Below are positions 10,455 to 27,848 of a stretch of DNA of 32,000 bases, in pieces. The DNA is taken from positions 6,324,585 to 6,356,584 of the forward strand of contig NZ_CP189852.1 of NCBI RefSeq assembly GCF_050235535.1. Direction: 5' to 3'. Positions within the stretch are counted from its first letter, which is position 1. Each line of letters starts with the position of its first letter. The notes beneath the pieces were generated by a model. That model was not told where the DNA came from. It saw nothing but the letters and a program-made list of their open reading frames with translations, and ran no database searches. The DNA comes from Aliinostoc sp. HNIBRCY26 (GTDB lineage: Bacteria; Cyanobacteriota; Cyanobacteriia; Cyanobacteriales; Nostocaceae). The position numbers were made by a program, and so were the translations under genes.

Positions 10455-10460
10455 CTTAAA

Positions 10461-12133: not shown

Positions 12134-12367
12134 TTACCATTTTGCTTGTAAGTAAAAACCACGAATTCCACCACCAGCAGTAGTTTGAGGTGCGCCTCTA
12201 TTGGGTGCAATAAATGGTTGATTAGTTTTTAGATGGGGCATTTTTAGCACAGGTGTTAACTCAAATTGCGGCTCTGGATTCGCTTTTGTGGATACACCAG
12301 AAATAACAGATAATCCCAAAAAAATAAAAATTGATGTCACACTTAAAATTTGATTTAGAGTATTCAT
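12134..12367 (-). CDS. Short secreted-looking protein (77 aa) carrying only the DUF928 N-terminal motif; it may be a DUF928 5' gene fragment
   Basis: The track ORF is 12134-12415. I prefer the start at ATG 12367-12365 (MNTLNQILSVTSIFIFLGLSVISGVSTKA..., signal-peptide-like). The block QPFIAPNRGAPQTTAGGGIRG matches QKFIPPNRQAPRTTAGGGSRG of the DUF928 protein at 19175-19909 in 16 of 21 positions. The ORF then ends at ...FYLQAKW-stop, so the rest of the DUF928 domain is missing. Confidence 0.45.
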   Translation of the reverse strand: MNTLNQILSVTSIFIFLGLSVISGVSTKANPEPQFELTPVLKMPHLKTNQPFIAPNRGAPQTTAGGGIRGFYLQAKW

Positions 12368-12649
12368 ATATTTTCTTGCTATTAATAAACACAACACTCT
12401 TTTGCAGAGTTGCAATTTCTTGCCCCCTACATAAGCGCATATTTTGTGTAGTTGAAAATCTCTATATATTTAAATTCACCCGATAAGAAAGGTTTTACGC
12501 AAACAATAACTACCCTCTATACTTTCGGCAATAAAATATGGGCATGGGAGCAAAATTTCTCCTACACCCCCACACCCTTACACCATTTCACGAAAAATAT
12601 GATACAGATGTAAATCCTGAAAACCTTGCTGCATCTGAGTTTTTTAATT

Positions 12650-12721
12650 GCGGTAGCGTCTCGGAGAGAAGCGGGACGTACCTGGAGGGGAAGCAAGCTA
12701 CGCGTTAGCGTTTCGGAGAGA
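12650..12721. repeat. Member(s) of a dispersed short GC-rich repeat family, with a local 16-nt direct repeat
   Basis: The direct repeat is tagcgtCtcggagaga (12654-12669) and tagcgtTtcggagaga (12706-12721). It flanks agcgggacgtacctggaggggaagcaagctacgcgt. The segment gtacctggaggggaagcaagctacgcgttagcgtttc (12678-12714) resembles the reverse complement of 25186-25222 (gtacccctccggggaagcaagctacgcgcagcgtctc). The decamer gcggtagcgt (12650) recurs inverted at about 14086-14095. The right-hand copy forms the last codons of the TVP38 gene. Confidence 0.6.
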
Positions 12722-13364
12722 GTTTAAATAACAACGGTGACACCGATAACAATACCAAAAAAACTGACGCGAGTATAAAAGAGGACGCGTCGCTTCCTTC
12801 TAAAGCGGTTTTTCCGGAAGCACCCAACCAAGTATAAGCAATCGTCCCTGGAATGACTCCAATTAAGGTTCCAAGGGTATAAATCTTCAGGTTGATTGCG
12901 GTTAGTGCCAATAAAAAGTTAATAATATTAAACGGAGCAATCGGGGCAAAGCGCAGAGATAGAACTAAGAAAAAGGGATTGCGTTCAAGTGCTTGATGCC
13001 ATTTTTGCAGCAGTTTATGTTGACCGAATTTTGCTACTGCCCAATCTCGAAATAGGTATCGAGTCAGACAAAATGCTCCTACTGCTCCCAATGTTGCGCC
13101 TAATGTAGACCAAAGGCTTCCCCATCCCAAACCAAAAACTACACCTCCAGTTAAGGTATGAATTGTTATCGGTAAACCTAAGACTGTAACCAATACGTAG
13201 GTGAAGATAAATAAGGGAACAGCCCAAATACCTAGTCTTTGCAACCAAAATGAGAGAATCTCTTGATTGAGCAAATTCCGTAAGGGAGTTGTGAAAAAGA
13301 GTAAGATTGCACTCAGCAGTAGTAATATCTGGAAATTTTTGCGGAGTAGACGCTTTAATCTCAC
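12705..13364 (-). CDS. TVP38/TMEM64 (DedA-related, SNARE-associated) family membrane protein
   Basis: This is the 219-aa track ORF with a GTG start (13362-13364). It is multi-pass hydrophobic and carries the family-typical block LPITIHTLTGGVVFGLGWGSLWSTLGATLGAVGAFCLTRYLFRDW. It starts 4 nt downstream of the previous gene's stop, so the two are probably co-transcribed. Confidence 0.75.
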   Translation of the reverse strand: MRLKRLLRKNFQILLLLSAILLFFTTPLRNLLNQEILSFWLQRLGIWAVPLFIFTYVLVTVLGLPITIHTLTGGVVFGLGWGSLWSTLGATLGAVGAFCLTRYLFRDWAVAKFGQHKLLQKWHQALERNPFFLVLSLRFAPIAPFNIINFLLALTAINLKIYTLGTLIGVIPGTIAYTWLGASGKTALEGSDASSFILASVFLVLLSVSPLLFKLSPKR

Positions 13365-13368
13365 GGAA

Positions 13369-13971
13369 CTACACTCCGTCCTGACTGGTTGACGAGTGCA
13401 TTAATGTTTTACGTAAATCAACTGCGTGAAAGATACTCAAAATATCACATTGCCAAGTTGGTAACAACAGCGTCATAGCAATTTCTTCTAAACTATTGAG
13501 CCAACAAAGCGCGATCGCAAACCAAAGGGTGTTTACGTAACCAAAACCAAATAGCCCCACAGTCGCCGCAAGTAGGGCTAATCCCCATGCTTTAGCAGTG
13601 TAGGTATGGAAACTAGGGAATTTTTGAAACTTGATTAAACTAATTGCGAATAATATGAGTTGGATAGCGATCGCAGACAATAAAGGTACTCGAAAATCGA
13701 TGATTACTTGGGGATATACTAACCAGGTACTAATAGCCACACACAAATACAAACAAATATCAGCCCAGCTATCTGCTTGACGAAGTTGGGTTGTACTAAC
13801 CTTTAAGCGACGGGCAATAATACCATCAAAAATGTCTGAAAGTACGGCAATAATGTAACCAATGATGAACCAAAAACTGGTTTTATGGTCTAAAGCATCG
13901 AAAACTAGTAAAGGAGCTAGAGCGAAGCGCATCCCCACTAAAATACTCGGAAGATGTGACAGTTTGATCAT
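13369..13971 (-). CDS. CDP-alcohol phosphatidyltransferase family protein
   Basis: This is the 200-aa track ORF, a polytopic membrane protein. SDIFDGIIARRLKVSTTQLRQADSWADI fits the D-x2-D-G-x2-A-R...D-x3-D signature, although the central Gly is not obvious. Confidence 0.7.
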   Translation of the reverse strand: MIKLSHLPSILVGMRFALAPLLVFDALDHKTSFWFIIGYIIAVLSDIFDGIIARRLKVSTTQLRQADSWADICLYLCVAISTWLVYPQVIIDFRVPLLSAIAIQLILFAISLIKFQKFPSFHTYTAKAWGLALLAATVGLFGFGYVNTLWFAIALCWLNSLEEIAMTLLLPTWQCDILSIFHAVDLRKTLMHSSTSQDGV

Positions 13972-14107
13972 CGTTCCCCACTTTCCTGAAATTAATTAAA
14001 TTAGGATAAAAACTGTAATAAAATCGACAAATTTGCTACAAGTATAACAATACAGCAGTGCAAGAGCGATCGCTTTTCCATGCTTGGCAACGCTACCGCG
14101 CACTACC

Positions 14108-16747
14108 CTAAGCCATCTGTCGCGCCATCAAATTCGCAAATAACCCTTGTTGTGAAACTAATTCCTCAAACTTACCTTGCTGGACAACTCGACCGGCTTC
14201 AATCACATAAATTCTGTCAGCATTGCGGATGGTACTGAGGCGATGGGCAATTACTATACGCGTGACTCCTAAATTATCTAAGCTGTTGCTGACTATAGCT
14301 TGGGTACGATTATCTAAAGCACTGGTGGCTTCATCAAAAATCAGAATTTTGGGTTTCAATACCAAAGCACGGGCTATTAATAGTCTCTGTCTTTGTCCAC
14401 CAGACAGGTTTGTACCACCCTCGGAAATGACTGTGTGCATTTCCATTGGCATTAATTGAATATCATCCGCCAACCCGGCCATGCGTGCAGCTTCCCAAGC
14501 TTCATCCATTGTCACCAATGCACCGCTAGAAATATTCTCAAAAATAGAAGCACTATTAATCCGCCCATTTTGCAGGACTACACCAATCTGTCGGCGCACT
14601 GCTGATATATCTAATCCTGATAAATCTTGACCATCGTAGTAAATTGTCCCGTCTTTTGGTGTTTCAAACCCCAACAACATCCTCATAATTGTCGATTTAC
14701 CACTGCCAGAAGGCCCTACTAAGGCAATAAACTCTCTTGCTTCAGCCTCAATGGTGACATCATCTAAATTCAGGGGGCCGTCTTCTCGATAACGGAATGT
14801 TACATGATCAATCTTGACTTTACCCGTTAACCGTCCAGGGTCGCTTTTGTTGAGATCAATTTCTGGTTGTGCTTGAAAGATGGGTTTGGCTCGTTCCCAA
14901 AAAATGCTGATGTCTAATATGCTAACTATGGTGTTACTCAGTTGTGTTGCACCCAAGATAAAGATAGCGAAGGCTGAGTTAAACGCTAAAAATGTCCCTG
15001 TGGATAATCCGGCACTGCCTTGAGACGGGGCTTGTGTAATTAATAGCACTGCCAGCCAAAAGATGATGATGGAAGTGATTGTTGGCATGACAGTATTAAA
15101 TATAGCTAAGATGTCTTCTACTACTTCTGTACTTAGTTTGAGTTTGAGTTGCTGACTATACTTTTTTGCCCAGTAAGCAAAGGCGCGGTCTTCGGCACTG
15201 CTGACACGAAGTTTAGACACGCCTGCAACCATCTGGACGGTAAAACCAAATATCTCTCCTTCTATTTCTTCTAAAACACGCAATTTCTGGCGGGTAAGTA
15301 TACCGGAGACAGTGGTAAAGATGATTGTCACCAGTGCTACTGCTAACACAACTAAAGCCAAACTAGAACTGTAGACAAACAACAGTCCCAAATTCAGCAG
15401 GGAGAAGAAACTAGTAAAGATGGTGCGTAATACTGTGTCGCCAAGTTTCTGCCGAATTTGAGTGATAGCGGAAACACGAGATTGTAAATCCCCTATGGAA
15501 TACTGCCGAAAGAAAGATACCCGCAAATTCAATAATCTATCCCACAGGGCAGCTTGGGAATCTAAACTACCTTTACTGTCTAGTCGCAGTCCGGCAAACC
15601 CTTGGGCAGTTTGAAAAACTACTGTGCCGAAAGTGGCTGCTAACAGACCTAAGCTGATTTGAAATAACAAGCCTCGGTCTGCATCAGGAATGACTGCATC
15701 GATGAGAATGGCGGTGGCTAAGGGCGTTAACATCCCTAGTAATGCGGCGATTGTTCCTGTCAGGAGGATGATGATCAGTTCTCGTATCTGTCCCTTGAAA
15801 GCAAACTTTAACACATCGATCGCAGTTAAATTTTGATCAGGTAGGGAACGATAAAACACATAGGCAAAGGGAGCTAGTTGTTGAGCCGTATAATCATTGA
15901 CAGGAATACGGGTATGATTTTCTGGGTCAAAAATTTCGTATTTTCTGGTTCCTGCTGGTAAAATCGCTACTGGGCGATTATCTTTGTGCGTATATGCCAG
16001 TAGAGGACTAGTATCCTTTAGCCACCATTGATTGTTGAGTAATACTCGCCGCATCCGAAGGCGAGAGGCACGGGCGATCGCTTCTAGGGGTTCTTTAATC
16101 CGATTCATCTCTTCGGAACGCGCCGGAGGCAAAATCTTCATGCCTAATGCCCTACCTACTGCACCTGCGGCAATTAACAGGGGTGTCCCAGTTTGTAACA
16201 GTTCTGCTTGTTTGGGTTTGAGAACCGATGCCAAATTCCCTAAAGCACCAACTTTGACTTGATGGTTAAATTGTTCTCGTGCTTGGAATTGCTCTAATTT
16301 AGTGGCTAACTCCTCTTGTTCTATCTGCACGAGAATTTGGCAAAAATCGCTGTGTAGTTGATTGAGAGTTAGTTGGATGCTATCCCAATTATTCACCTCA
16401 TCAGGATGGGAGAATATAGGAGGAATGACACAGCGATCGCCTACACAACCACAGATATTTTTCCCCCAAGTCTGCACTAACTCCAGCCACCCTTGAGACT
16501 GATCAGTTAATTGCCACAGTACAGTCTCTTCCATTGCTACGGCTAAAATTTTATGGGTCTGAGTGGCTATGCCAAACAATGCTTCCCCTGGATTGACAGC
16601 AAATAGATAACGGCGTACTCCGTCAATTCCTTCGTGAATGGGAATCGCAAACAGCGCGATCGCACCTGATTTCATCTGCCAAACGGTGTGCGGATCGTCT
16701 AATAACAAGGACTGATTGCTGGTGAGCAATAACTGGGAATCATTCAT
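14108..16747 (-). CDS. NHLP/Nif11-type bacteriocin export ABC transporter permease/ATPase subunit (no peptidase domain; cNMP-binding-like N-terminal domain)
   Basis: This is the 879-aa track ORF. About 330 aa precede the TMD, including a beta-barrel-like VWQMKSGAIALFAI...RRYLFAVNPGEALFGI stretch. A six-TM ABC exporter region follows. The ATPase motifs are Walker A GPSGSGKST, signature LSGGQRQR and Walker B ILIFDEATSALD. The architecture matches what I remember of the TIGR03797-type partner in the NHLP export trio. Confidence 0.85.
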   Translation of the reverse strand: MNDSQLLLTSNQSLLLDDPHTVWQMKSGAIALFAIPIHEGIDGVRRYLFAVNPGEALFGIATQTHKILAVAMEETVLWQLTDQSQGWLELVQTWGKNICGCVGDRCVIPPIFSHPDEVNNWDSIQLTLNQLHSDFCQILVQIEQEELATKLEQFQAREQFNHQVKVGALGNLASVLKPKQAELLQTGTPLLIAAGAVGRALGMKILPPARSEEMNRIKEPLEAIARASRLRMRRVLLNNQWWLKDTSPLLAYTHKDNRPVAILPAGTRKYEIFDPENHTRIPVNDYTAQQLAPFAYVFYRSLPDQNLTAIDVLKFAFKGQIRELIIILLTGTIAALLGMLTPLATAILIDAVIPDADRGLLFQISLGLLAATFGTVVFQTAQGFAGLRLDSKGSLDSQAALWDRLLNLRVSFFRQYSIGDLQSRVSAITQIRQKLGDTVLRTIFTSFFSLLNLGLLFVYSSSLALVVLAVALVTIIFTTVSGILTRQKLRVLEEIEGEIFGFTVQMVAGVSKLRVSSAEDRAFAYWAKKYSQQLKLKLSTEVVEDILAIFNTVMPTITSIIIFWLAVLLITQAPSQGSAGLSTGTFLAFNSAFAIFILGATQLSNTIVSILDISIFWERAKPIFQAQPEIDLNKSDPGRLTGKVKIDHVTFRYREDGPLNLDDVTIEAEAREFIALVGPSGSGKSTIMRMLLGFETPKDGTIYYDGQDLSGLDISAVRRQIGVVLQNGRINSASIFENISSGALVTMDEAWEAARMAGLADDIQLMPMEMHTVISEGGTNLSGGQRQRLLIARALVLKPKILIFDEATSALDNRTQAIVSNSLDNLGVTRIVIAHRLSTIRNADRIYVIEAGRVVQQGKFEELVSQQGLFANLMARQMA

Positions 16748-18986
16748 TTGGACTTATGGCATTTTGCAATTGCACTGCTACTTCTGGGGGTATGTTAGTA
16801 AAGCGAATATAAAAACTATTTGGTTCTGCTGTTTTGTCTAAGACTTTAGCATAGATGTCTTCAGTAATTGTGGTATGAGGGGGTAGAAAAAAGTTTAATT
16901 TTAAATTGGTAAATGGTGGCAAAACTACGGGATTTATTGTTGAATCATGGCATATTTGCGCGCCTGTGGCTGACAGCTTAACTAAGTTCCCTCTGCTCAC
17001 ACTTCTATCTACGTCTTTACCATCCAAAATTGCATACTGTAGGGGAATTGCGACTGGTAGTTGCGAAAATATTTCTGCTTCTTGTACCAGATATAAATTG
17101 TATTCTCCAGCGATGCCACCAATTTCATATATTTTTATGGGTTGTGTCACCCCTTTGGCTTGTACTTCTTTAACGTCCAAAATTTGGGCGATCGCACCAA
17201 CTTCATTAATAGTTGATTCGGAAACAAAAATTTGTCCACCAACTGTATAAGATTCAATACGATAAGTTAAATTTACTTGACTACCAATAATTCCATATTT
17301 AGTGCGTTTTTCTGAACCAATATTACCTACTACTACTTCTGCTGTATTAATCCCAATGCCCATTTCCAGTTTTGGTAATCCCATTTGCTGGATTTTTTGA
17401 TTCACCTCTGCCATTACTAACTGCATCGCTACTGCACAAGCAATTGCTCTAGTCGCATCATCATTTCTAGTAATAGGCGCACCAAATAAAACTAAAATAC
17501 CATCACCCATAAACTCATCAATAGTTCCTTGATATTGAGTAATGACATCTGCCATATATCCCAAATAAAGATTAATAATTCTCAGGACTTCTTCTGCCGA
17601 TAATCTCTCAGATGTCGCAGTAAATCCCCTTAAATCAGAAGTGAGAATTGTGATTTTTTTGCGTTCTCCACCCAGTTTTAAACCTTCAGGATTTTCTAGT
17701 AAATTGGCGACTACTTCATCGGTAAGGTAACGACCAAAGGTTTTGCGAATAGCTCCCGCAGTTCTAGCAACATAAGCAGTTACAGCAATTCCCGAACCAA
17801 TTAATGTCATTAATGGTGGGACGAAAGGAATCCACCATCCTGCCAAAAAAGCTAGATAACTAATACCTATGAGACTACATCCAGCCAGCAATAAGCTAAT
17901 AATAGGTAAAAGTGATTTTCTTTTAGAAGTGCCACTATATCTTTGTTGCCATCTTAAGGTTGCTCCTATCAATGCCCACAGAAAAATCCATAACCATTCT
18001 TGTGGTTTATTCCAAGTTTTAATTAATGGTCGATTATCTAAAGTCGCACTTAAAATTTGACTGATAGCATGAGCATGAATTGCTACGCCTGCCATGCGTT
18101 TTGGTGCTGTTAATATTGTGCTGCTGGCGGGTGTATAGAATAGGTCTTTGAGACTTTCAGCCGTGGAGCCAATTAACACAATGCGTCCCTTGAATAAATC
18201 CTGGGGTATGCGATTTTCTAACACATCTACAATTGATATCTGCTGAAAACTTGGTTGAGCATGACGATAATTGATTAGTACCTGATAACCTTGGTCTTCG
18301 GCTCGCACATAACCACCATCATTACTTGTAAATAAGGGGTAAATGACATTACCTGTTTTGACTAAAAAATCATCGGTTTGTCCGACCTCTATATGGCGAT
18401 CGCTCAAATCAAGATAAGCTAATTTAAAGGCAAAACTAAATATATTTTCTCCATTTTTATCAGCTAAATACAGTAAACTACGACGAACTTTTCCATCCCC
18501 ATCTAAAGGAAAATCGTTTGCACCTACTTGTCCGAGTTTTTTCAGTGCTGGCGGTGGTGCAACTGCTGAACTATCATCACTTTCCGCAACTTTCTGTATC
18601 CCAACTAAATTGGGTGTAGTCTCAAAGATTTTCACTAATGAATCATGACCAGAACCTACTGGTAAATCTCGATATAAATCTAGACCAATGGCACTGGGTT
18701 GTTGTTGTTTGATATTTCCTAAAATCTGGGAAAGTAAGCCATCCGGTAAAGGCCAATTACCATTTTTACCGAGCTTCTGTACATCCGATTCATTAATTTC
18801 CACAATGACAATGCGCGAGTCTAGAGATTCTGGAGGACGTAACAGAAACATTTGATCCAGTGCGGCTAATTCTAACATCTGCAATAGTCCACTCAAGCGC
18901 AGAATGAACACAAATATACCTACGCTGGGAGCAGTAATTAAGATACCGCGCCATTGCCAAATTTGTTTTTTAATTTGACTCCACAT
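16740..18986 (-). CDS. CHASE2 extracytoplasmic sensor domain / class III adenylate-guanylate cyclase, with an uncharacterised ~130-aa C-terminal extension
   Basis: This is the 748-aa track ORF. An N-terminal TM segment is followed by a ~330-aa periplasmic CHASE2-like region and then a block of TM helices (WLWIFLWALIGATL..., LLAGCSLIGISYLAFLAGWWIPFVPPLMTLIGSGIAV). The cyclase core reads ITILTSDLRGFTATSERLSAEEV...GTIDEFMGDGILVLFGAP...GINTAEVVVGNIGSEKRTKYGIIGSQVNLTYRIES. Its stop codon overlaps the ABC gene start in ATGAATGA (16740-16747). Confidence 0.9.
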   Translation of the reverse strand: MWSQIKKQIWQWRGILITAPSVGIFVFILRLSGLLQMLELAALDQMFLLRPPESLDSRIVIVEINESDVQKLGKNGNWPLPDGLLSQILGNIKQQQPSAIGLDLYRDLPVGSGHDSLVKIFETTPNLVGIQKVAESDDSSAVAPPPALKKLGQVGANDFPLDGDGKVRRSLLYLADKNGENIFSFAFKLAYLDLSDRHIEVGQTDDFLVKTGNVIYPLFTSNDGGYVRAEDQGYQVLINYRHAQPSFQQISIVDVLENRIPQDLFKGRIVLIGSTAESLKDLFYTPASSTILTAPKRMAGVAIHAHAISQILSATLDNRPLIKTWNKPQEWLWIFLWALIGATLRWQQRYSGTSKRKSLLPIISLLLAGCSLIGISYLAFLAGWWIPFVPPLMTLIGSGIAVTAYVARTAGAIRKTFGRYLTDEVVANLLENPEGLKLGGERKKITILTSDLRGFTATSERLSAEEVLRIINLYLGYMADVITQYQGTIDEFMGDGILVLFGAPITRNDDATRAIACAVAMQLVMAEVNQKIQQMGLPKLEMGIGINTAEVVVGNIGSEKRTKYGIIGSQVNLTYRIESYTVGGQIFVSESTINEVGAIAQILDVKEVQAKGVTQPIKIYEIGGIAGEYNLYLVQEAEIFSQLPVAIPLQYAILDGKDVDRSVSRGNLVKLSATGAQICHDSTINPVVLPPFTNLKLNFFLPPHTTITEDIYAKVLDKTAEPNSFYIRFTNIPPEVAVQLQNAISPNE

Positions 18987-18996
18987 GAGATTACAT

Positions 18997-19045
18997 CAAT
19001 TCGCAATTCGCAATTCGCAATTCGCAATTTGCAATTTGCAATTCG
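18997..19045. repeat. STRR-type tandem heptamer array (CAATTCG/CAATTTG x7)
   Basis: The units are caattcg x4, caatttg x2, caattcg x1. The array begins 11 nt upstream of the cyclase start codon (18986), in the DUF928-cyclase spacer. The same heptamer recurs at 31308-31371. Confidence 0.85.
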
Positions 19046-19174
19046 CATTTTTCGCATTGTAACGAGGATTTAGACCCCTACATTTTGTTAATTCAAAATT
19101 CAAAAAAGAGCATTTAACGCGTACTCTCACATTCATATCTGTGGTTTTATTGTACAATCTGGGCATTTTCTAAA

Positions 19175-19909
19175 TTATTGATTGAGCAAAGGTTGAGAAA
19201 CTAAGTTTTTTAAGCCGACTGACTCTAAAAAGGCTTGCCAATTTGCTGTGACTTGGCGATCGCTAGGATGCGCTAGACGTTGTTGTACTAAGGTATGCAA
19301 TGCTTCATGCCAAATGCCAGCATTGGCGTACACTTGGGATAGTTGCTGGGGATTTGTCCTGGCTAGCTGCTGGGATAAAGCTGGGGTGGCTGGGATACGT
19401 TCTACCCAACCATCTACGGTAATTTCTTTTTCTTCTTCAGGATTGCAGGCGATCGCAAAATACCAGTGATACTTTTTACCAACTTTCAGGCTAGATGCGC
19501 TAGATGGCAGAGTAAAACCCATAATTCCCGTTTCTTTAGGAAGTTTAACAGTTGTTTCGTAGACTACACCTTGATCATCTAGTAATGAAAAGTGTGCCGT
19601 TTGTACGCTAACCTGCGGCACAAACCAGTAAAAACTAGGACGTTCAGCCAAAGTTAAACCGAATTTATTTTGCGGTATTAAGGGCTGTATAGTTTCTTTA
19701 CTTGCTAACTCACAGAAATCTCCACGGCTTCCCCCACCAGCAGTTGTGCGGGGTGCTTGGCGATTTGGAGGGATAAATTTCTGGCTGATTTGCCCGTTTT
19801 GCCATCTTCGTGGTGATTCAGCTATGCCTTTGGGCAAACTAGAAATGCTTAATAATCCTAGAGAGAGGGAAACTGCTGTCAGATTTATAAATTTTCTTAT
19901 CAAATTCAT
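19175..19909 (-). CDS. DUF928 domain-containing secreted protein
   Basis: This is the 244-aa track ORF. It has a signal-peptide-like N-terminus (MNLIRKFINLTAVSLSLGLLSISSL). Family-typical blocks follow: FIPPNRQAPRTTAGGGSRG..C, RPSFYWFVP, LKVGKKYHWYFAIAC and YANAGIWHEAL. Confidence 0.8.
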   Translation of the reverse strand: MNLIRKFINLTAVSLSLGLLSISSLPKGIAESPRRWQNGQISQKFIPPNRQAPRTTAGGGSRGDFCELASKETIQPLIPQNKFGLTLAERPSFYWFVPQVSVQTAHFSLLDDQGVVYETTVKLPKETGIMGFTLPSSASSLKVGKKYHWYFAIACNPEEEKEITVDGWVERIPATPALSQQLARTNPQQLSQVYANAGIWHEALHTLVQQRLAHPSDRQVTANWQAFLESVGLKNLVSQPLLNQ

Positions 19910-20121
19910 ATTAAGTTAGGTTAATTTTCCAGCCTCTAAAAACAACAACTATATTTGCTAATGCCAAAGGTGATATTAATTTAAATTAATTACCTATATT
20001 AAAACTAATACTACCTGATTGTCCAAAAATAAATTTTAACTTAACTATTATGCCAACTTTACAAGCTGACATTTGATTGCAATAGATAACTTAATTTCAC
20101 TCATCATCAATTTTAGACAAT
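19910..20121. promoter_or_regulatory. Divergent promoter region between the DUF928-cyclase-ABC genes (minus) and the CNB-HlyD-ABC genes (plus)
   Basis: This is a 212-bp, very AT-rich, stop-rich spacer between divergent gene sets. It contains an AT-only 14-bp palindrome, ttaatttaaattaa, near 19976-19989. I found no recognisable CRP-type TGTGA-N6-TCACA site or NtcA GTA-N8-TAC site. Confidence 0.35.
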
Positions 20122-21162
20122 ATGGTCAGACAAATACTAGCTAATTTTCCTCATTTCCTAGCTTTGGGAGATAGAGATATTGATTGGATGCTTAGTGTAA
20201 GTAGATTCATAGAATATCATACGGATGAAGTTCTGATTCAAGAAGGTCAAGCAGTTATCAATACGATAGAAATTTTATTAGCAGGTGCATTAAGTGTTCG
20301 TGTTTCTCCCACTGGAAATATAGAAGATGCGGTGGAAATTGATCGGGTAGCGGCGGGAGAAATTGCCGAATCTCTATCTTTTATAGATCATCGTCCCCCT
20401 TCTATTAGTTGCATAGCCTTAGAAAACTCACGCGTGTTATCGCTACCTCGACTGGCATTAATTCAAAAGTTAGAGCAAGATAAAGCATTTGCTGCTCGTT
20501 TTTATCAAATGCTGTCTATGTCACTATCAAAGCAATTGCGAAGATTAACTGATTTTCTTGCTAAAAATAACGTTGTTCCTGGTGAACCATTACGCAAAGT
20601 TTTATTTGTATTTGCCATCTTGAATGATAGCGATATTGATTGGATGATTTCCCAAGGAATCAGACAGCAAGTTAATCCGGGAACGATCCTGATTGAGGAA
20701 GGTAAACCTGTTGAGGCATTATATATATTATTAGATGGTAAATTAGGAATTTTTGTTAGCACACCACAGAATGAACTGACTCAAAAGGAAATTGCTAAAT
20801 CAGTCAAAGGTGAAATTCTAGGAGAAATGTCTTTTGTAGAAATGACAAATGCTTCTGCCACAGTTAAAGCCGGAGAATCTTCAGTGTTATTGGCACTACC
20901 ACAGGCAATATTAGCAGCAAAATTAAAGCAGGATACAGGATTTACAGCCCGTTTTTATCGAGCGATCGCGGTGGTTTTAACAGATAGAATCCGTGATCGA
21001 TTATTCCGGCGAGGATTTGGCAAATTAGCTTACCAATTAGATGAACTTTTATCTGAAAATATCGAAGTTGAAGATGAAATCGACTTAGATACATTAGACA
21101 ATACTGCCCTAGCAGGTGCTAGATTTGACTGGATGATTAAACGACTCAATAGGCAATCTTGA
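20122..21162 (+). CDS. Protein with two tandem cyclic-nucleotide-binding-like (CAP effector-type) domains and no output domain
   Basis: This is the 346-aa track ORF. Two repeats follow the CNB beta-barrel pattern. The first is LIQEGQAV...LLAGALSVRV...AAGEIAESLSFIDHRPPSISCIALENSRVLSL. The second is LIEEGKPVEALYILLDGKLGIFV...KGEILGEMSFVEMTNASATVKAGESSVLLAL. In my hand alignment the phosphate-binding-cassette Arg appears substituted in both repeats (P and A). Confidence 0.75.
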   Translation: MVRQILANFPHFLALGDRDIDWMLSVSRFIEYHTDEVLIQEGQAVINTIEILLAGALSVRVSPTGNIEDAVEIDRVAAGEIAESLSFIDHRPPSISCIALENSRVLSLPRLALIQKLEQDKAFAARFYQMLSMSLSKQLRRLTDFLAKNNVVPGEPLRKVLFVFAILNDSDIDWMISQGIRQQVNPGTILIEEGKPVEALYILLDGKLGIFVSTPQNELTQKEIAKSVKGEILGEMSFVEMTNASATVKAGESSVLLALPQAILAAKLKQDTGFTARFYRAIAVVLTDRIRDRLFRRGFGKLAYQLDELLSENIEVEDEIDLDTLDNTALAGARFDWMIKRLNRQS

Positions 21163-21204
21163 ACAACAAAAGGTCAACTATACCCAATTCCAAGCTCCAA
21201 ATAA

Positions 21205-22644
21205 ATGGCTGATAAAGAAAGTATATTTCGCAAAGAATCACTGGAGCGGTTATCTTCTCCAGAAAGATTGGATCAATTAATGCAAATAGTTAACCCTTTA
21301 GATTGGCTACCTTTGGCCACTTTGGGTGGTTTTATCGTTTTGGGGTTAGTTTGGAGTATCTTTGGCCGGATTCCCATTACAGTGTCAGGTAAGGGAATAC
21401 TGATTAAACCTAATCAAGTTGTAACTTTTGAGTCTCCCATCTCTGGACAATTGAAAAGTCTGAATGTGAAAACCGGACAATGTATCGAAAAAGGACATAT
21501 TATTGCCACAATTGATCCTACTGATCTCAAACAACAATTGCGGCTCCAACGCTCCAAATTGGCGCAATTACAAACACAAGAACGGGATTCTATTTTACTT
21601 CAGCGACAACGTACCGCCAAGGAAAAAGAAGCGATCGCATCTGCTAGAGCCAGTTACATTCAACGGTTGCGAGATACCCAAACTCTCACGCCTGCGTTTT
21701 ATGAAAAAGGCTTAAATGCGATTCGTCAACAGCGTATTAGTTTACAGCAACGCCTCAAGGATGCTACGGAACTTGTACCTGTCCTGCAAGATAGATTTCA
21801 GAAACGTCAGCAGCTTTTAGATGCAGGCGCAATTGCTAAAGATACCGTGTTACAAGCAGAGCAAGAATATAAACAAGGGTTACAAACCGTCTATGATATC
21901 CAAGCACAACTCAAGCAGTTAGATGTGCAAGAAACAGAAGCACAGCAGAGATACTTAGGAAATCTCAGTTCTGTCGGTGAATTGCAAGCACAATTAAAAG
22001 ACTTAGAAACGAGGAGTAAACGTATTGATCAAGAAAACGCAGAAAATATTAATACTAAAGTTAATCAAATTCAGGATACCAATCGAGCGATCGCCCAACT
22101 AGAAAAACAAATATTAGATAATAGTCAAATTATTAGCCTCAGTAGTGGTTGTGTATTAGAAGTTTCAACTTTTGTTGGTCAAGTTGCTAGTCCCGGAACT
22201 CCGCTTGTATCTGTCAACACCAGCAACAACAACACTCCCCTCATTGCCATCTCCTACTTTAACGTCAAAGATGGCAAACTGATTCAACCAGGAATGACCC
22301 TACAAATTACCCCCGACTCCGTCAAAAGAGAACGCTTCGGTGGTATTGTGGCTCAAGTCACCTCTGTTTCCTCTTTACCTGTAACTAAAGAAGGTGCAAA
22401 TTCGCTGATTGGCAATCCTGACTTAGTGTCAAAAATCTTACCAACTGGCGGCGGAGATATGGAAGTGCGAGCAGAAATGGTCATTGACTCATCTACCTTT
22501 AGCGGTTATCGTTGGTCTTCCTCCCAGGGGCCAAAATTAAACATTTCTGCGGGAACAACTACCACTGTGCGGGTAAAAGTAGCAGAGCAGGCCCCCATTA
22601 CTTTTGTTTTGCCCATTCTCCGCGAATTTACTGGAATTAACTAA
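21205..22644 (+). CDS. HlyD-family membrane fusion/secretion protein of the NHLP-type bacteriocin export system
   Basis: This is the 479-aa track ORF. The N-terminus FRKESLERLSSPERLDQLMQIVNPLDWLPLATLG is followed by a TM segment, a long coiled-coil (QLRLQRSKLAQLQTQE...QLKDLETRSKRIDQE), and a beta-barrel C-terminus. As I remember it, this matches the TIGR03794-type family. Confidence 0.85.
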   Translation: MADKESIFRKESLERLSSPERLDQLMQIVNPLDWLPLATLGGFIVLGLVWSIFGRIPITVSGKGILIKPNQVVTFESPISGQLKSLNVKTGQCIEKGHIIATIDPTDLKQQLRLQRSKLAQLQTQERDSILLQRQRTAKEKEAIASARASYIQRLRDTQTLTPAFYEKGLNAIRQQRISLQQRLKDATELVPVLQDRFQKRQQLLDAGAIAKDTVLQAEQEYKQGLQTVYDIQAQLKQLDVQETEAQQRYLGNLSSVGELQAQLKDLETRSKRIDQENAENINTKVNQIQDTNRAIAQLEKQILDNSQIISLSSGCVLEVSTFVGQVASPGTPLVSVNTSNNNTPLIAISYFNVKDGKLIQPGMTLQITPDSVKRERFGGIVAQVTSVSSLPVTKEGANSLIGNPDLVSKILPTGGGDMEVRAEMVIDSSTFSGYRWSSSQGPKLNISAGTTTTVRVKVAEQAPITFVLPILREFTGIN

Positions 22645-22678
22645 ACAAATCTAGCGATTCTGTTCCCTCCCTTGAGCA

Positions 22679-24952
22679 ATGAATTTAATCGTCTCACTCT
22701 CCCAACTCAATCCCCTTCGCAAACAAACACCACCGCCAGAATTAGGAACAGCACAAAGTCAAATCCCCTCCCGTGTCAAAACTCCTACCCTCTTGCAAAT
22801 GGAAGCCGTGGAGTGTGGAGCGGCGGCTTTAGGAATTATTTTGGCGTACTACCGTAAAATTGTCCCCTTAGCCGAACTGCGCCAAAGTTGCGGCATTTCC
22901 CGTGATGGTAGCAAAGCTTCTAATATGATTAAAGCTGCCAGAAACTATGGAATGCAGGCTAAAGGTTTTAAAAAGCAGTTGGAGCAATTAAAAACACTCC
23001 GTCCGCCATATATTGTCTTTTGGAATTTCAATCATTTTTTAGTAGTTGAGGGATTTAAAAAAAATTGGGTTTACCTGAATGACCCAGCCACAGGGCCAAG
23101 ACGAGTTTCCTATCAAGAATTTGATGAAGCTTATACAGGGGTTGTCCTGGTCATGGAACCAGGAACAGAATTTCAACGCGGCGGTCGTAAACCTAGCTTA
23201 ATTGGCTCTTTGGTAGATAGATTACAGAGTTCTTGGGGGGCTATTCTCTATTGTTTACTTGCGGGATTTTTCCTAGTTATTCCGGGTTTAGTTTTACCAG
23301 TATTTAACCAGATTTTTGTTGATCAAGTTCTTGTAGAAAACCGTACAGATTGGTTGCGTCCACTCATTTTGGGCATGGGCATCACTGTATTTATTCAGGG
23401 ATGGCTAACATTTTTGCAAAGACGGTTTTTAAGAAAATTAAATATTAAGTTATCAGTGGAAATGTCCAGCCAATTTATCCACCATATTTTGCGCTTGCCA
23501 GTAGGATTTTATGCTCAAAGATTTGCCGGAGAAATCAGCAGTCGGATTAATATTAATACCAAAGTTGCAGAAGTGCTATCAGGTCAATTAGCGAGGACTG
23601 TAATTGATACGGTCATGGTAGTATTTTATGCCATAGTGATGTTTGCTTATGATGGGGTATTAACGGCTATTAGTGTGTGTTTTGTGGCAATTAATATCCT
23701 GGCATTACAGTGGGTTTCACGGCAACGCACAGATATGTATATGCGAACTATACAAGACCGGGGTAAAGTCGCAGGGACAGAAATTGCTGCACTCCAAAGT
23801 ATGGAAACCCTCAAAGCCTCAGCTTTGGAGTCAGATTTCTTCTCACGCTGGTCTGGTTACTATACAAAATTGATTAATGGTCAGCAGGAACTAGGGATTA
23901 CCAATCAAGTATTAGGGGTTTTACCGCCATTTTTGACTAGTTTAAGTTCACTATCAATTTTAGCGATCGGTGGACTGCGGGTCATGGATGGATATCTCAG
24001 CATTGGGATGTTAGTTGCTTTCCAAAGTTTAATGACTAGCTTTTTAACTCCGGTCAACTCTCTAGTTAATTTTGGCAGTACCCTACAAGAATTAGAGGGT
24101 GATTTGACTCGTTTGGATGATGTGTTGCGAAACCCGACTGATCCAGAATTGGACAGTCAAGATACAGATATTCAGCCAGTACAGTATGCTTCACCCTGTC
24201 AACTCCGGGGATACGTAGAATTTAAAAATGTCACATTTGGCTATTCGCGCACAGATGAGCCACTAATTAAAGACCTGAGTTTTCAGCTAAAACCAGGAGA
24301 AAGAGTTGCTTTAGTTGGTGGTAGCGGTTCAGGTAAATCAACAGTTGCTAAATTGTTAGCCGGACTTTACCAACCTTGGTCGGGGGTAATTCTGTTTGAT
24401 GGTATTCCCAGAGAGAAAATCCCCAGGTCAGTCATGTCTAATTCTCTGGCGATCGTAGAACAGGAGATTTTTTTATATGCTGGTACTGTCAGGGAAAATT
24501 TAACATTATGGGACGATACTGTACCCAATTCGCAATTAATCCGGGCTTGTAAAGATGCTGCCATTCACGAAGCCATTTTAGCTTTACCTGGGGGCTATGA
24601 TAGCCACTTGCTTGAGGGTGCAGCTAATTTAAGCGGAGGACAACGTCAGCGTTTGGAAATTGCTCGTGCATTAGTCAATGATCCGACAATTTTAGTCATG
24701 GATGAAGCGACCAGTGCTTTAGATGCAGAGACAGAAAAAATTATTGACCGAAATCTACGCTATCGGGGATGTTCTTGCATTATTGTGGCTCACCGTTTAA
24801 GTACCATCCGCGACTGTAATGAAATCATTGTTCTAGAAAAAGGTCAGGTAATACAGCGAGGTAATCATCAACAGATGTCACAGATAGATAGCCCTTATGC
24901 AAAATTAATTCAATTGGAGCAAACTAGTAGTTCACCAACCCAAAATTGCTAG
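22679..24952 (+). CDS. NHLP-family bacteriocin export ABC transporter with an N-terminal C39 double-glycine peptidase domain (peptidase/permease/ATPase)
   Basis: This is the 757-aa track ORF. The C39 catalytic Cys block is LLQMEAVECGAAALGIILAYY, and the His region is WNFNHFLVVEG. A six-TM region follows. The ATPase motifs are Walker A GGSGSGKST, signature LSGGQRQRLEIARAL and Walker B ILVMDEATSALD. Confidence 0.9.
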   Translation: MNLIVSLSQLNPLRKQTPPPELGTAQSQIPSRVKTPTLLQMEAVECGAAALGIILAYYRKIVPLAELRQSCGISRDGSKASNMIKAARNYGMQAKGFKKQLEQLKTLRPPYIVFWNFNHFLVVEGFKKNWVYLNDPATGPRRVSYQEFDEAYTGVVLVMEPGTEFQRGGRKPSLIGSLVDRLQSSWGAILYCLLAGFFLVIPGLVLPVFNQIFVDQVLVENRTDWLRPLILGMGITVFIQGWLTFLQRRFLRKLNIKLSVEMSSQFIHHILRLPVGFYAQRFAGEISSRININTKVAEVLSGQLARTVIDTVMVVFYAIVMFAYDGVLTAISVCFVAINILALQWVSRQRTDMYMRTIQDRGKVAGTEIAALQSMETLKASALESDFFSRWSGYYTKLINGQQELGITNQVLGVLPPFLTSLSSLSILAIGGLRVMDGYLSIGMLVAFQSLMTSFLTPVNSLVNFGSTLQELEGDLTRLDDVLRNPTDPELDSQDTDIQPVQYASPCQLRGYVEFKNVTFGYSRTDEPLIKDLSFQLKPGERVALVGGSGSGKSTVAKLLAGLYQPWSGVILFDGIPREKIPRSVMSNSLAIVEQEIFLYAGTVRENLTLWDDTVPNSQLIRACKDAAIHEAILALPGGYDSHLLEGAANLSGGQRQRLEIARALVNDPTILVMDEATSALDAETEKIIDRNLRYRGCSCIIVAHRLSTIRDCNEIIVLEKGQVIQRGNHQQMSQIDSPYAKLIQLEQTSSSPTQNC

Positions 24953-25073
24953 GCTAAGGCAAGCAGGGGGAGCAGGGGGAGAAAGAGATTTTTTTTGCTG
25001 CTATTAACCTTACAAAGTTCTCTTGGCAGACTACTAGTGGGTAATTTGGCACGTTTATAGCCACAGAAAAAAT

Positions 25074-25257
25074 TTAAGTAGAACGACTTGAAAAACCAAA
25101 CTATGTAAAGTAATGTAAAAAGATTGGAATCTAGTTCGTAGTAAGGACTTCAGTCCTTATCAGAGGACTAAAGTCCTCTCTACGAGACGCTGCGCGTAGC
25201 TTGCTTCCCCGGAGGGGTACACTACAAACCTTGGATTATTTACACCGTTCTACTTAA
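25074..25257. mobile_element. MITE-like ~184-bp element bounded by 12-bp terminal inverted repeats, with internal hairpins
   Basis: TTAAGTAGAACG at 25074-25085 is the exact reverse complement of CGTTCTACTTAA at 25246-25257. Inside the element, tcgtag (25135-25140) pairs with ctacga (25181-25186), enclosing two stem-loops (aaggact-tca-gtcctt and gaggact-aaa-gtcctc). The GC-rich module at 25186-25222 is shared, inverted, with 12678-12714. The element has no coding capacity. Confidence 0.55.
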
Positions 25258-25277
25258 TAGCAAAGTAAAAGTATAAA

Positions 25278-27848
25278 TTAGCTATTAATAAAGCCAACTC
25301 TTAATACAATATCGTTATAGTCAAAGTCACTAGCAGAGCCAAGTAAATCTTCAAACCCAAACAAATTATTACCTAAATTAACAATGTGAGACTGTCCATC
25401 TTGGTTTGCTGTGCCGAAAGAGAAAAACACGTGCGATGCACCACTTAACCCTTCGCCTAAATTGCCATTTGCTACAATAAATGGTGCAAAAAAAGCACCC
25501 CCAGTTAAACTACTGGACACCACATTACTAGAGCGATCGCTTACAGTCAAATCAACACCAACACGGCGCGAATTTAACGCATCTTTGATGTATTGTTGGC
25601 GATTAAAATTACTCGCGCCTGGTGTATTATCGTTAATTGTGCCATCAGCATCATCTACCAAATAGAAACCGACTAAGTTATCATATAAAGCTTCTCGATG
25701 CAGAGTGCATTGAACGTCAACTGTCCCTGTAGCTGAACGTAGGTCTAAAAGAGCATTGTTATTTTCTGTATTGATACCAAATTTGAGTGCGTCGGTAGTA
25801 GCTTCAACTTCTAAGATGCTTTGATCAGACCATTGCAAGCCAAATAATGCAGAGAAGATAGATTCAGGGTTTTGAAAATCAGTAATTGTCAAATCTGAAT
25901 TTGTGTTATTACCCCATAATATTAATTGACTAGATTTCCCAAAATTCTTGATTTGGTAAAACAGGTATTTAGCACCGCCATTTAAAATCAATTCGCGGTC
26001 AGAATCACCACCCAAAGCATCTGGTAAAGTGGAGAAAATAATTTGTTTACGCGACATGACGGCTGCTTCATAACCTGCATCACCGGGCTGTAAGTCACCT
26101 ATATGGCCTGCACTATCATCTACCTCAATGCAGCCATACTCGTACACACTATTTTGAGCATTAGCACGAGACTTTAACTTAAACCGGAAAGTTTGTTGGA
26201 ATCCTGTGTTTGCATGAATTGATAAGACATTATTTTCAATTGATAAGACATTGTTTTCAATTGGTAAGACATTATTGTCGTTGGGGCTAGCAGTTACAGG
26301 AATGGTGAGAATTAATTGACCACCTTCAGCGTGTCTACCATTGAGAACATCCGTCGAATTTGCTGGATTGACAACTGTATGGGCTTGGACATTAAATAGA
26401 TATGTACCAAAACCAGAAACAAGGCTTTTACCAACTTCAATAATCCCAGAAGATTCCCATTGACCCTTAATATCTGGATTGTTGAACTGGCTACCAGCAG
26501 CATTTTCATCGAGGTAAAATAACGGGACAATTTCTTTAGTTTTGGGATTAAAAGACCAAATTGCCGCCTCTCGGTTTTCAGCCTTGAGCAAGTCGCCACC
26601 AAAAGCGGTTTCGTCCTCCATGATGAGAACGTTACCATATCTGTCTACAACAATGTTGTCATAACTGGTTCCCTTTCCAGGCCCCCCAGTCAGCAACAAT
26701 TCAAAATTATTGATTGTGCCTGTGGGGTCGTCAGGATTTAAGGTAAAGCTATAGAGTCTACCATAGGGGTTTTCTGCTAAGTCGGGAGTGGCTACATCAG
26801 AGCCAGTAGGATTTCCTGGTGGTTTCTTGGTTCCGGTGGTGACAAAGTAAAAAGTTCCTGGGTTGTTGGGGTCTTCTGCGAAATCTTCAATACGCTGGAA
26901 GTTAGTTGAATTACCTCCTGCATTCACAAAAGCAGTCAAATCTGTACCAGTAGTTTTTGGTGTACTATCAGAATTAAAGACTGCTGATTTATCAATCTTT
27001 GTCCATTGGGCTGTGGTTTTGCCAGTTACTTGTCCTTCATAGTCTACATTATCAACCTTCAGGACGTACAAATCACCATTTTGGAAGCCATTGGGGTCAT
27101 CTGGAGTCTGGTTCCCCACCCACATATAAAGTTCACCGTCAGCATTATCTTCTGTGGCAAACAGTACAGTTTTATCAGAGTTGGTAGCCCGATATTGGGA
27201 AGCAGCAACTACATTTTCTTTAGCATAGCGACCTAAACCATCTAGTGCTGTGGCTGTACCGTCTGGTGTAACAGCCCAACCCCGACTGGTGTTATTACTT
27301 TCTTCTGGTGCAAAATAAATAGGAACTTCTTGACCGTTGCTGTCCACAAAACCTTTATCAGCCAGAAAAGCAGAACAAAAGCGACCGAAAGCAGCAAGAG
27401 GATTACCCTCGTTAATGTATGCACCCGTAAAAGTATTTAGCGTGTAAGAGCCTGTAGTATCTACTGCTTGGTCAATAAGATTTTTACCGCCCAGAACGTT
27501 CCAGTTTTCGTCAAATACAAACAGGGAAACTCTCGCACCGACGATTTGATTTGTACCAGCCGTTGTGGAAATACTTGTGGTAGTGCCACTTCCTAGTTCA
27601 TGGTTTACCCAGACGTAATTATATGTTTTGCCTGCGATCTCTACTTGTGTCGAGCCTAATCCATCTGGGATGCCGGTAAAGGCAAATTTTTGAGCAGCAT
27701 CAAAAGTTGGGGCAGAAGAACTACTAAAGGTACTTATTAATAAAGGTACTTCATCGCCTACTGTCAACAAAGGAACAATTTTGTAAGGTGATTTGTCAGC
27801 AAGGCTCACGTAAGCAGAAGCAGTGGTTTTGCCGTTTTCAATAGCCAT
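25278..27848 (-). CDS. Large extracellular-type protein: PhoX/DUF839-like beta-propeller N-terminal region and a C-terminal DUF4114 domain
   Basis: This is the 856-aa track ORF. The N-terminal pattern [13 protein letters not shown]...FTGIPDGLG...YVWVNHELG resembles the DUF839/PhoX family. The C-terminal [24 protein letters not shown] is a DUF4114-type signature. An internal 7-aa triple repeat reads [21 protein letters not shown]. No obvious signal peptide is present at the annotated start. Confidence 0.55.
26221..26283. repeat. Three tandem 21-bp units inside the PhoX-like gene
   Basis: The units are gataagacattattttcaatt, gataagacattgttttcaatt and ggtaagacattattgtcgttg. On the coding (minus) strand they encode the (N-N-V-L-[PS]-I-[EH]) x3 repeat. 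Confidence 0.85.

Follow-up and report, generated by a model that had tools for sequence, protein, structure and literature searches.

A three-gene cluster for the export of NHLP/Nif11-type peptides, made up of members of the families TIGR03794, TIGR03796 and TIGR03797, has been described by Haft et al. 2010 (PMC2887384) and Wang et al. 2011 (PMC3140520), and a cyclase is mentioned in neither of these papers. In the current analysis we have considered a stretch of 32,000 nucleotides, referred to as the window, from the cyanobacterium Aliinostoc sp. HNIBRCY26 (contig NZ_CP189852.1, positions 6,324,585 to 6,356,584). Its positions 14108 to 24952 encode an exporter of the NHLP/Nif11 type with a built-in, predicted receptor guanylyl cyclase module, which is comprised of a DUF928 protein and a cyclase recognised by its sequence as an orthologue of Synechocystis Cya2.

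Cya2 (sll0646) of Synechocystis sp. PCC 6803 (Ochoa de Alda 2000 and Rauch 2008, as cited in PMC5995499 and PMC4284465) was the sole confirmed bacterial guanylyl cyclase when PMC4284465 was written, and its effector is not named there. The Protein Data Bank (PDB) entry 2W01 is this guanylyl cyclase, which is referred to as "originally CHASE2-regulated" and is converted to an adenylyl cyclase by the exchange E488K (PMC5995499). The CHASE2 cyclases CyaD1, CyaD2 and CyaK of Sinorhizobium meliloti act with NsrA and Clr in the response to an extracellular proteinaceous signal, in which an envelope protein helps (PMC13001267). The bCNG channels, formed by an MscS channel with a cyclic-nucleotide-binding (CNB) domain at the C-terminus (Caldwell 2010 and Malcolm 2012, as cited in PMC13591265), are without an assigned physiological role. 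The export trio, the family TIGR03896, Cya2 and the bCNG channels are thus already known; the exporter with an embedded receptor guanylyl cyclase appears to be new. No paper linking the export trio, TIGR03896, Cya2 or bCNG through a cyclase was found in a literature search limited to papers available without subscription, and the same search returned no DUF928 paper beyond an unrelated mention.

Six genes arranged in two divergent units make up the locus. The plus-strand unit begins with a gene (20122..21162) for a protein of 346 residues with two CNB domains and a conserved acidic C-terminal tail, followed after 42 nucleotides by the gene of a HlyD-type periplasmic adaptor (21205..22644; TIGR03794, 358.8 bits against a cut-off of 156.2) and by that of ABC exporter subunit 1, hereafter ABC1 (22679..24952; TIGR03796, 1164.6 bits against 853.3). 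ABC1 has an active-type C39 peptidase domain (Peptidase_C39, residues 35-163, 120.8 bits) with Cys in the motif VECGAAAL and His in NFNHF. The minus-strand unit encodes the DUF928 protein (19175..19909), the cyclase (16740..18986) and ABC exporter subunit 2, hereafter ABC2 (14108..16747), an NHLP-type permease/ATPase of 879 residues belonging to TIGR03797 (995.5 bits against 709.4), whose sequence matches an Aliinostoc sp. HNIBRCY26 protein at 100% identity. The families were assigned with Pfam gathering scores and the curated TIGR cut-offs, and all the six proteins exceed them; both the open reading frame (ORF) coordinates and the families given by the first-pass annotation, which was made from the sequence of the window without database searches, are in agreement with these results. 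A locus of Nostoc sp. CMAA1605 is the nearest related one.

All three exporter proteins of the window score above the curated equivalog cut-offs, as expected of the described NHLP/Nif11 cluster. Unlike in that cluster, the trio is split between two divergent units, a DUF928-cyclase pair is inserted, and the cyclase gene overlaps the ABC2 gene by 8 nucleotides. The minus strand at this junction reads caaATGAATGAttcc, with the ATG of ABC2 at 16747 and the stop codon TGA of the cyclase at 16742-16740. Since this TGA lies within the ABC2 gene, the overlap (ATGAATGA, 16740..16747, minus strand) places the cyclase stop in the start region of ABC2, an arrangement of translational coupling; the overlap itself had been noticed in the first reading of the sequence. 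The two units are separated by an AT-rich intergenic region of 212 nucleotides (19910..20121), where promoters in both directions are presumed.

The cyclase is a protein of 748 residues. It has a CHASE2 domain at residues 23-342 (nucleotides 17961-18920, minus strand; Pfam 241.8 bits) and a catalytic Guanylate_cyc domain at residues 443-612 (nucleotides 17151-17660, minus strand; 80.6 bits). In a search of the solved structures it is matched by 2W01 at an E-value of 1e-79 across the entire catalytic domain and by 6FHT, a phytochrome fusion and engineered adenylyl-cyclase variant, at 4e-92. In the printed alignments the specificity motif reads TIDEFMGDG in the window cyclase and 2W01, and TIDKFMGDG in the 6FHT fusion; the second specificity motif of the window cyclase, KYGIIGSQVN, carries a Gly. 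The metal-binding Asp pair (ILTSDLRGF and FMGDG) and the transition-state Asn and Arg (VNLTYR) are present and all align to 2W01. Among 80 orthologues from species-representative genomes, which are 53-96% identical to the window cyclase, the Glu is kept in all 80, and the second site is Gly in 71 and Ser in 6.

The window cyclase shares with Synechocystis Cya2 the CHASE2 domain, the transmembrane segments, the class III catalytic domain, the C-terminal extension and the Glu of GTP preference. On the basis of these comparisons it is classed as a Cya2 orthologue, and the orthology together with the Glu/Gly pair leads to cyclic GMP (cGMP) as the predicted messenger. The first-pass annotation had left the product as cyclic AMP or cGMP; a cyclase making a cyclic nucleoside monophosphate (cNMP) is retained, but its signature points to cGMP specifically. 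No cue or effector is given for Cya2 in PMC5995499 or PMC4284465, whereas the gene context of the window proposes a DUF928 protein as partner and a CNB-fold ABC exporter as target.

The full block, with the genes for ABC1, HlyD and the two-CNB protein divergent from those for DUF928, cyclase and ABC2, has been identified in 17 complete and 2 fragmentary loci among the 80, and also in Cylindrospermum stagnale PCC 7417. The block loci are encoded in Nostoc, Desmonostoc and Cylindrospermum, all with a cyclase identity of at least 74%. The overlap of 8 nucleotides between cyclase and ABC2 is kept in 15 of the 18 loci in which it could be measured, and Cylindrospermum shows gaps of 196-312 nucleotides instead. 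The 5 kb beyond ABC2 are common to only 13 of 136 pairs of loci, and the flank beyond ABC1 to 66 of 136. The turnover of the flank beyond ABC2 indicates that the block outlasts the rearrangement of its surroundings.

DUF928 and Cya2 form a gene pair that occurs throughout cyanobacteria independently of exporters. The DUF928 gene lies directly 5' of the cyclase on the same strand in 54 of the 80 loci and directly 3' in 4 of them. The occurrence of this pair across cyanobacteria, mostly away from exporters, argues that DUF928 is part of the sensor and not of the exporter. A role as exporter component had been considered and was rejected, as DUF928 accompanies the cyclase in 58 of 80 loci with or without an exporter; of the circuit proposed in the first-pass annotation, the association of DUF928 with the cyclase stands, while the protein is to be placed with the sensor. 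The DUF928 protein of the window has 244 residues (PF06051, 212.3 bits against 26, profile positions 2-184 of 184), with a signal-peptide-like N-terminal segment and two conserved Cys, and is probably a periplasmic partner of the CHASE2 domain. A FecR-domain protein occupies the equivalent place in Shinella and Ensifer. These arrangements suggest a secreted protein as the partner with which CHASE2 acts.

Genes of two-partner secretion (TPS), namely TPS exoproteins and ShlB/POTRA transporters, and CHAT proteases recur in the vicinity of CHASE2 cyclases and DUF928. In 17 of the 80 loci (L022, L026, L027, L029-L035, L040, L053, L054, L061, L067, L070 and L079) the cyclase has a TPS-domain gene no more than 10 kb away, and ShlB or CHAT genes are found in L083, L089 and L171. 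A further ORF of 93 residues at 12134-12415 of the window (minus strand), 1.7 kb past ABC2, has a C-terminal part, FIAPNRGAPQTTAGGGIRG, that is a copy of the motif at the N-terminus of DUF928, FIPPNRQAPRTTAGGGSRG. The ORF has the appearance of a truncated second DUF928 gene and is present in L001 as well.

The slot 3' of cya2 typically holds effectors or degraders of cNMPs, and it is in this slot that the CNB-fold ABC exporter is found in Nostocaceae. In the more distant loci it is occupied by an MscS channel whose CNB domain is canonical (FGELSLMLGIPRTATV, FFGELSLMLGIPRTATV) in 14 loci, and by an Apyc1-like protein of the metallo-beta-lactamase (MBL) fold in 12 loci (PF23023, 89.8 bits, above the Pfam threshold). 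Apyc1 is a phosphodiesterase of cyclic mononucleotides. Altogether 22 loci have one or both of these genes, sometimes with Crp-like and GAF proteins after them. An example is L047, with the DUF928-cyclase pair at 8935-12250 and the 3' gene at 12256-13713; others are L039, L044, L053, L070 and L079. A cassette of cyclase, phosphodiesterase and effector is thus apparent outside Nostocaceae, which would supply a source of cGMP for the bCNG channels and an effector for Cya2. ABC2 resembles the bCNG channels in that both are membrane transport proteins, carry a CNB module and have their genes 3' of a Cya2-like cyclase; the CNB domain of bCNG is canonical (PRTATV), whereas the CNB modules of the exporter are not.

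Cyclases beside exporters have been identified in other lineages too. In Aphanothece the genes for a Trp halogenase, Nif11, JmjC, LanM, ABC2, DUF928 and Cya2 are clustered, the cyclase being 55% identical to that of the window and hence of a different subclade. Rivularia PCC 7116 encodes Cya2, an MFS protein, TPS, MscS-CNB, TerB, ABC2, LanM and five Nif11 genes, with Cya2 within 8 kb of ABC2 there and in L031. Plasmid p1 of Shinella carries genes for FecR, a CHASE2-cyclase, HlyD, ABC1, ABC2 and a CNB protein in one direction. In an Ensifer plasmid an MBL protein and a CHASE2-cyclase are divergent from TPR, FecR, HlyD, ABC1, an ABC protein and a CNB protein. A plasmid of Spirosoma has a TPR-cyclase within a LanB/LanM/NHLP cluster that also contains CNB, TolC, HlyD, ABC1 and ABC2. 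A scan of metagenomes with the half-size CNB protein described below gave 38 loci of at least 6 kb, nearly all with the order HlyD-ABC1-ABC2-CNB; a class III cyclase is encoded in 5 of the 38, of which four are Shinella- or Ensifer-like and one is the contig L133, where a membrane/2Fe-2S cyclase begins directly after the CNB gene. The physical connection of cyclase and exporter seen in the window, which the first-pass annotation had interpreted as a circuit, is therefore not a single occurrence. CHASE2 itself was considered as the common denominator of these loci and was rejected, since the Spirosoma and L133 cyclases carry other sensor domains.

Exporter loci were also collected without a cyclase as query (n=51), and 11 of them have a class III cyclase within about 10 kb. 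As a crude background, the regions flanking the 80 cya2 loci gave 2/80; with the background set to 6% the binomial tail for 11/51 is 2e-4, and on collapsing to about 7 of 40 lineages the p-value is 0.009, or 0.10 at a background of 10%. The statistics of adjacency are suggestive, and the pattern is the stronger argument, as varied sensors and gene orders in three phyla always bring together a class III domain and a CNB-carrying exporter. The recurring pairings suggest that peptide export is switched by a second messenger, and it is in our assessment well supported and probable that the synthesis of cNMPs is functionally tied to exporters of this family.

The protein at the head of the plus-strand unit, noted in the first reading for its two CNB-like domains, indeed has two stretches of the cNMP_binding family (PF00027, 87.3 bits against 27.5) and belongs to an exporter-associated family that was already named, the 'bacteriocin-type transport-associated protein' TIGR03896 (cyc_nuc_ocin; 303.2 bits against 161.05, residues 20-342). 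No paper naming TIGR03896 was found in the literature search, and the family name gives no function or ligand. As in Coleofasciculus, Tildeniella and Cylindrospermum, the gene of the window precedes that of HlyD. In an alignment of 38 TIGR03896 proteins, 40-89% identical to that of the window, the binding cassettes read GE.SF.D..PPSATV in domain A and GEMSFVE...ASATV in domain B, with Gly-Glu and Ser-Ala-Thr retained; those of the window are AE...RPPSIS and GE...TNASATV. Near the C-terminus, E319, A331, F335 and W337 do not vary. That PPSATV is so strongly conserved speaks for a functional pocket, with a chemistry other than that of CAP or PKA. Single-domain, half-size homologues occur commonly beyond the cyanobacteria, namely in Alphaproteobacteria, in Bacteroidota and in many metagenome contigs from soil and peat (L087-L090; L091-L170), and the gene order around them is HlyD-ABC1-ABC2-CNB.

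ABC2 has in its N-terminal part two domains that have escaped annotation. The TIGR03797 profile spans only residues 187-878 and Pfam assigns ABC_membrane to residues 324-597 and ABC_tran to 661-809. For the N-terminus there is no Pfam match even at E-values up to 10, the search of PDB sequences is empty, and an alignment to TIGR03896 by hhalign has a probability of just 5%. Residues 1-186 were modelled with AlphaFold2 from an alignment of 67 homologues; the model has a predicted local distance difference test (pLDDT) score of 92.2, with eight strands, a helix at 87-105 and then a single helix at 121-185. A homologue search with residues 1-317 had given 24 fragmentary proteins and the full-length ABC2 was used as query instead. 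The top Foldseek matches of this model in the PDB are CprK, Vfr, CRP, FNR, NtcA, cAMP-bound Bd1971 and PKA-R, with a probability of 1.0 and E-values of about 1e-5 to 1e-4. The cNMP-binding-like character that the first-pass annotation had read in this region is thus confirmed at the level of the modelled fold as a CNB fold, but finds no counterpart in the sequence searches. The CNB-fold beta-roll corresponds to residues 1-105 (16433..16747, minus strand) and its degenerate cassette to F58-G59-I60 and H65-K66. The long helix (16193..16387, minus strand, by DSSP on the model) is similar to the C-helix of CRP-type proteins and likely serves as a dimerisation element.

The helix is followed by a second domain at residues 187-320 (15788..16189, minus strand). 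The AlphaFold2 model of residues 181-330 has a pLDDT of 84.6 and is matched by the C39-like domain of HlyB (7sgr_A, E=2.7e-4; 3zua, 7.6e-4; TM-score about 0.55), by ComA and by PCAT1. Read against the C39 domain of ABC1, this domain carries neither Cys nor His where the catalytic residues would be (no Cys is present in residues 187-205), and BLASTP of residues 187-320 with that domain gives no match, so that the kinship is visible by fold alone. ABC2, described earlier as peptidase-less, does lack the catalytic residues but not the domain. It resembles HlyB in having a C39-like fold without the catalytic Cys N-terminal to the transmembrane domain, and differs from HlyB, PCAT1 and ComA in an additional CNB-fold domain and a helix of 65 residues ahead of it. 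The order of domains in ABC2 (14108..16747, minus strand) is thus CNB-fold, long helix, C39-like domain, transmembrane domain and nucleotide-binding domain. We know of no solved transporter with the arrangement of CNB-fold, helix and C39-like domain.

Two proteins of 1520 residues from Nostoc and Dendronalium (P0237 and P0258) have the C39-ABC and the second ABC subunit in one chain; these fusions support the two ABC subunits acting as a heterodimer. In Rivularia, Dulcicalothrix and Iningainema (L085 8792-9982, L172 8839-9981 and L173 8793-9983) a TerB-domain protein of about 390 residues is encoded divergently, with only about 20 nucleotides separating it from the ABC2 start, and is another conserved partner of ABC2.

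A mechanism can be proposed from these arrangements. A periplasmic or extracellular cue would act on CHASE2, probably jointly with the secreted DUF928 protein, and the catalytic domain of Cya2 type would make cGMP. The cGMP would act locally on the TIGR03896 protein, on the N-terminal domain of ABC2, or on both, with ABC2 translationally coupled to the cyclase. The processing of leaders or the export would thereby be tuned, and the direction and the sign of this regulation we infer. As in the S. meliloti system, a CHASE2 receptor cyclase would be combined with a CNB-domain protein as cNMP effector, proposed at the window from the genes alone; the effector there is a Crp-type transcription factor whose cassette is canonical, and an outer-membrane beta-barrel is the helper, unlike the exporter parts and DUF928 that are the candidates here. 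We regard the chances of this proposal, in which DUF928 and CHASE2 sense a cue and the CNB-fold modules of the exporter respond to cGMP, as evenly balanced.

The observations that weigh against it begin with the binding cassettes. The replacement of the phosphate-contacting Arg, noticed in the window protein from the outset, is a property of the whole family: in all the 38 aligned TIGR03896 proteins, domain A has Pro at this position and domain B has Ala. Domain A is further degenerate in the Nostoc clade, where Gly or Glu is also gone (AESLSF in the window, without Gly). The half-size homologues of Shinella, Ensifer, Azospirillum and Spirosoma read GEVVGEMSF.D.APPSATV, the Arg being absent in 4/4. 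In the N-terminal domain of ABC2 the FGE motif has become FG-I/V/M with the loss of Glu, a conserved Arg or basic residue before the next strand is absent (13 to 67 homologues), and the cassette loop ranges in length between about 5 residues and more than 40. None of the cyclase-linked TIGR03896 and ABC2 proteins was seen to have regained a canonical cassette; if anything, domain A is the more degenerate in the Nostoc clade. The exporter-linked cyclases outside cyanobacteria have Lys with Ser or Asp and are of adenylyl-cyclase type, so that the messenger would vary by lineage with the receptor cassette unchanged. It is the missing Arg, ABC2 without Glu and a lineage-dependent nucleotide that keep our estimate where it is.

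Gene neighbourhoods and the contents of the window also count on this side. The first-pass annotation had expected cyclase, DUF928 and CNB genes to be conserved beside the exporter genes; this holds for at least 19 further Nostocaceae species genomes, where the overlap is mostly kept (15/18), but 40 of the 51 exporter loci have no cyclase within 10 kb. Coleofasciculus, for example, has two NHLP precursors, DUF7005, the two-CNB protein, HlyD, ABC1 and ABC2 in one direction and no cyclase, which is likewise absent from the part of Aphanothece with the two-CNB protein and ABC1, from pNPUN02 of N. punctiforme, and from Azospirillum, Dulcicalothrix and Iningainema. In Tildeniella DUF928-CHAT-ShlB lies between ABC2 and the two-CNB gene, and the cyclase is about 25 kb off. 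About 60 of the 80 DUF928-Cya2 pairs are away from any exporter, and the adjacency of cyclase and ABC2 is lost in Nostoc FACHB-110 (L002) and in Trichormus (L003), where the ABC2 orthologue is on another contig. A scan of positions 13300-25400 for promoters and terminators gave counts at or below the shuffled expectation; at this chance level no promoter site is assigned and no operon boundaries are claimed. An NHLP/Nif11 precursor gene is absent from the 32-kb window as judged by a Gly-Gly leader pattern, the small intergenic ORFs and tblastn with 15 NHLP, Nif11 or LanA precursors from related loci, the single match (E=5e-4) falling inside a Lant_dehydr_N gene. The genes for the precursors may lie in another part of the genome; the related loci contain NHLP/Nif11 precursors and genes for LanM, radical SAM proteins or halogenases.

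The absence of the phosphate-binding Arg from the cassettes is accommodated by an alternative in which DUF928 (or FecR) senses, with CHASE2 in the periplasm, the exported peptide or the event of its export in an autocrine or feedback loop, and the cNMP acts mainly on Crp-type regulators or channels elsewhere. The Arg-less CNB-fold modules would then bind a ligand other than a cNMP, such as the NHLP/Nif11 leader, a nucleoside or another metabolite. The loop as a whole and control of export by cGMP are compatible. Domains of the CRP/FNR fold bind many ligands that are not cNMPs, and the best fold matches of the ABC2 N-terminal domain include CprK, NtcA and FNR. The S. meliloti CHASE2 cyclases answer a proteinaceous signal via an outer-membrane protein (PMC13001267), Cya2-like cyclases are often near secretion genes (TPS in 17/80; ShlB/CHAT in L083, L089 and L171), and regulators with a helix-turn-helix are encoded in the Shinella and Spirosoma clusters. 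However, the six-gene block of the window encodes no transcription factor, and exporters are adjoined also by the cytoplasmic TPR-cyclase of Spirosoma and the 2Fe-2S cyclase of L133, which are unable to sense a periplasmic peptide via CHASE2. We consider this loop unlikely, though the foremost of the alternatives.

A bolder combination would make TIGR03896 and the N-terminal domain of TIGR03797 a new class of cNMP receptors without Arg by which peptide export is turned on or off, and DUF928 (in cyanobacteria) and FecR proteins (in Rhizobiaceae) periplasmic co-receptors of CHASE2 that sense the exported peptide, the whole forming a self-contained, quorum-like circuit of autoinduction by cGMP. 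If true, it would supply both the cue and the effector of Cya2; we hold it to be rather unlikely.

That the neighbourhood has no functional meaning, a DUF928-cya2 pair having been inserted once between divergent exporter genes in an ancestor of Nostocaceae and then inherited, with chance accounting for the other cases as cyclase genes are numerous, appears to us improbable. Such a history would be in keeping with the absence of adjacency from most exporter and most cya2 loci, with the Nostocaceae cases forming one clade (cyclase identity at least 74%), and with a lineage-collapsed enrichment that is not significant at the 10% background (p=0.10). It does not account for a start/stop overlap that is kept at about 80% cyclase identity while the ABC2 flank turns over (13/136 pairs), for at least five further arrangements with different gene orders and cyclase subfamilies in three phyla, or for the cNMP effectors that fill the same cya2-adjacent slot elsewhere. 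Least probable of all is reverse signalling, in which the output of a cyclase complexed with a co-translated ABC2 is set by how the transporter stands in its ATP cycle or substrate load, so that the exporter is a sensor and cGMP has distant targets: the overlap of 8 nucleotides does imply co-translation and roughly equal output of the two inner-membrane proteins, and ABC2, not ABC1 or HlyD, accompanies DUF928-Cya2 in Aphanothece and Rivularia, but the Trichormus cyclase remains with the two-CNB protein, HlyD and ABC1 while ABC2 is elsewhere, and that of Shinella precedes HlyD and not ABC2.

Control of export by cGMP through the CNB-fold modules, which we prefer to these alternatives, would have consequences beyond the present locus. 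If the CNB-like modules of the widespread NHLP/Nif11 exporters respond to a cNMP, the secretion of peptides that are ribosomally synthesised and modified post-translationally (RiPPs) in cyanobacteria, rhizobia and Bacteroidota would be under the control of a second messenger, which is relevant to heterologous expression and to natural-product discovery, where products are silent or not exported. Since 2000 Cya2 has served as a workhorse of biochemistry and optogenetics, and its gene context now proposes DUF928 as sensor partner. As its effectors we propose the bCNG channels or the Apyc1-like phosphodiesterase in most cyanobacteria and the CNB-fold ABC exporter in Nostocaceae. The repeated pairing with DUF928 or FecR and with secretion genes narrows the search for the ligand of CHASE2. 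Even if the link is merely genomic, the annotation of ABC2 is corrected to include a CNB-fold and a C39-like domain.

The region 1851-12064 of the window contains a RiPP-like biosynthetic cluster with two homologues of flavin-dependent Trp halogenases, one of them with an N-terminal extension of 380 residues, two MBL-fold proteins and a Lant_dehydr_N protein. Halogenase homologues follow directly after ABC2 in L005, and Trp halogenases are encoded in the exporter loci of Aphanothece and Iningainema. Positions 1-2000, at the left edge of the halogenase cluster, are AT-rich (28-33% G+C, against about 42% elsewhere) and have only short ORFs of low complexity. The spacer of 188 nucleotides between the DUF928 and cyclase genes includes a tandem heptamer CAATTCG in 7.3 copies (18997..19047), which is also present at 19090-19105 and is of a type of short tandem repeat common in Nostocales.

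On the other side of the locus, the genes at 25278-32000 appear to be unrelated to the cyclase-exporter finding. They encode a PhoX-like/DUF4114 secreted protein (25278-27848, minus strand), a cytochrome P450 (28148-29530, plus), a TPR-M48 peptidase (29635-31296, plus) and a secreted protein whose gene is cut by the window's end (31434-32000, plus).

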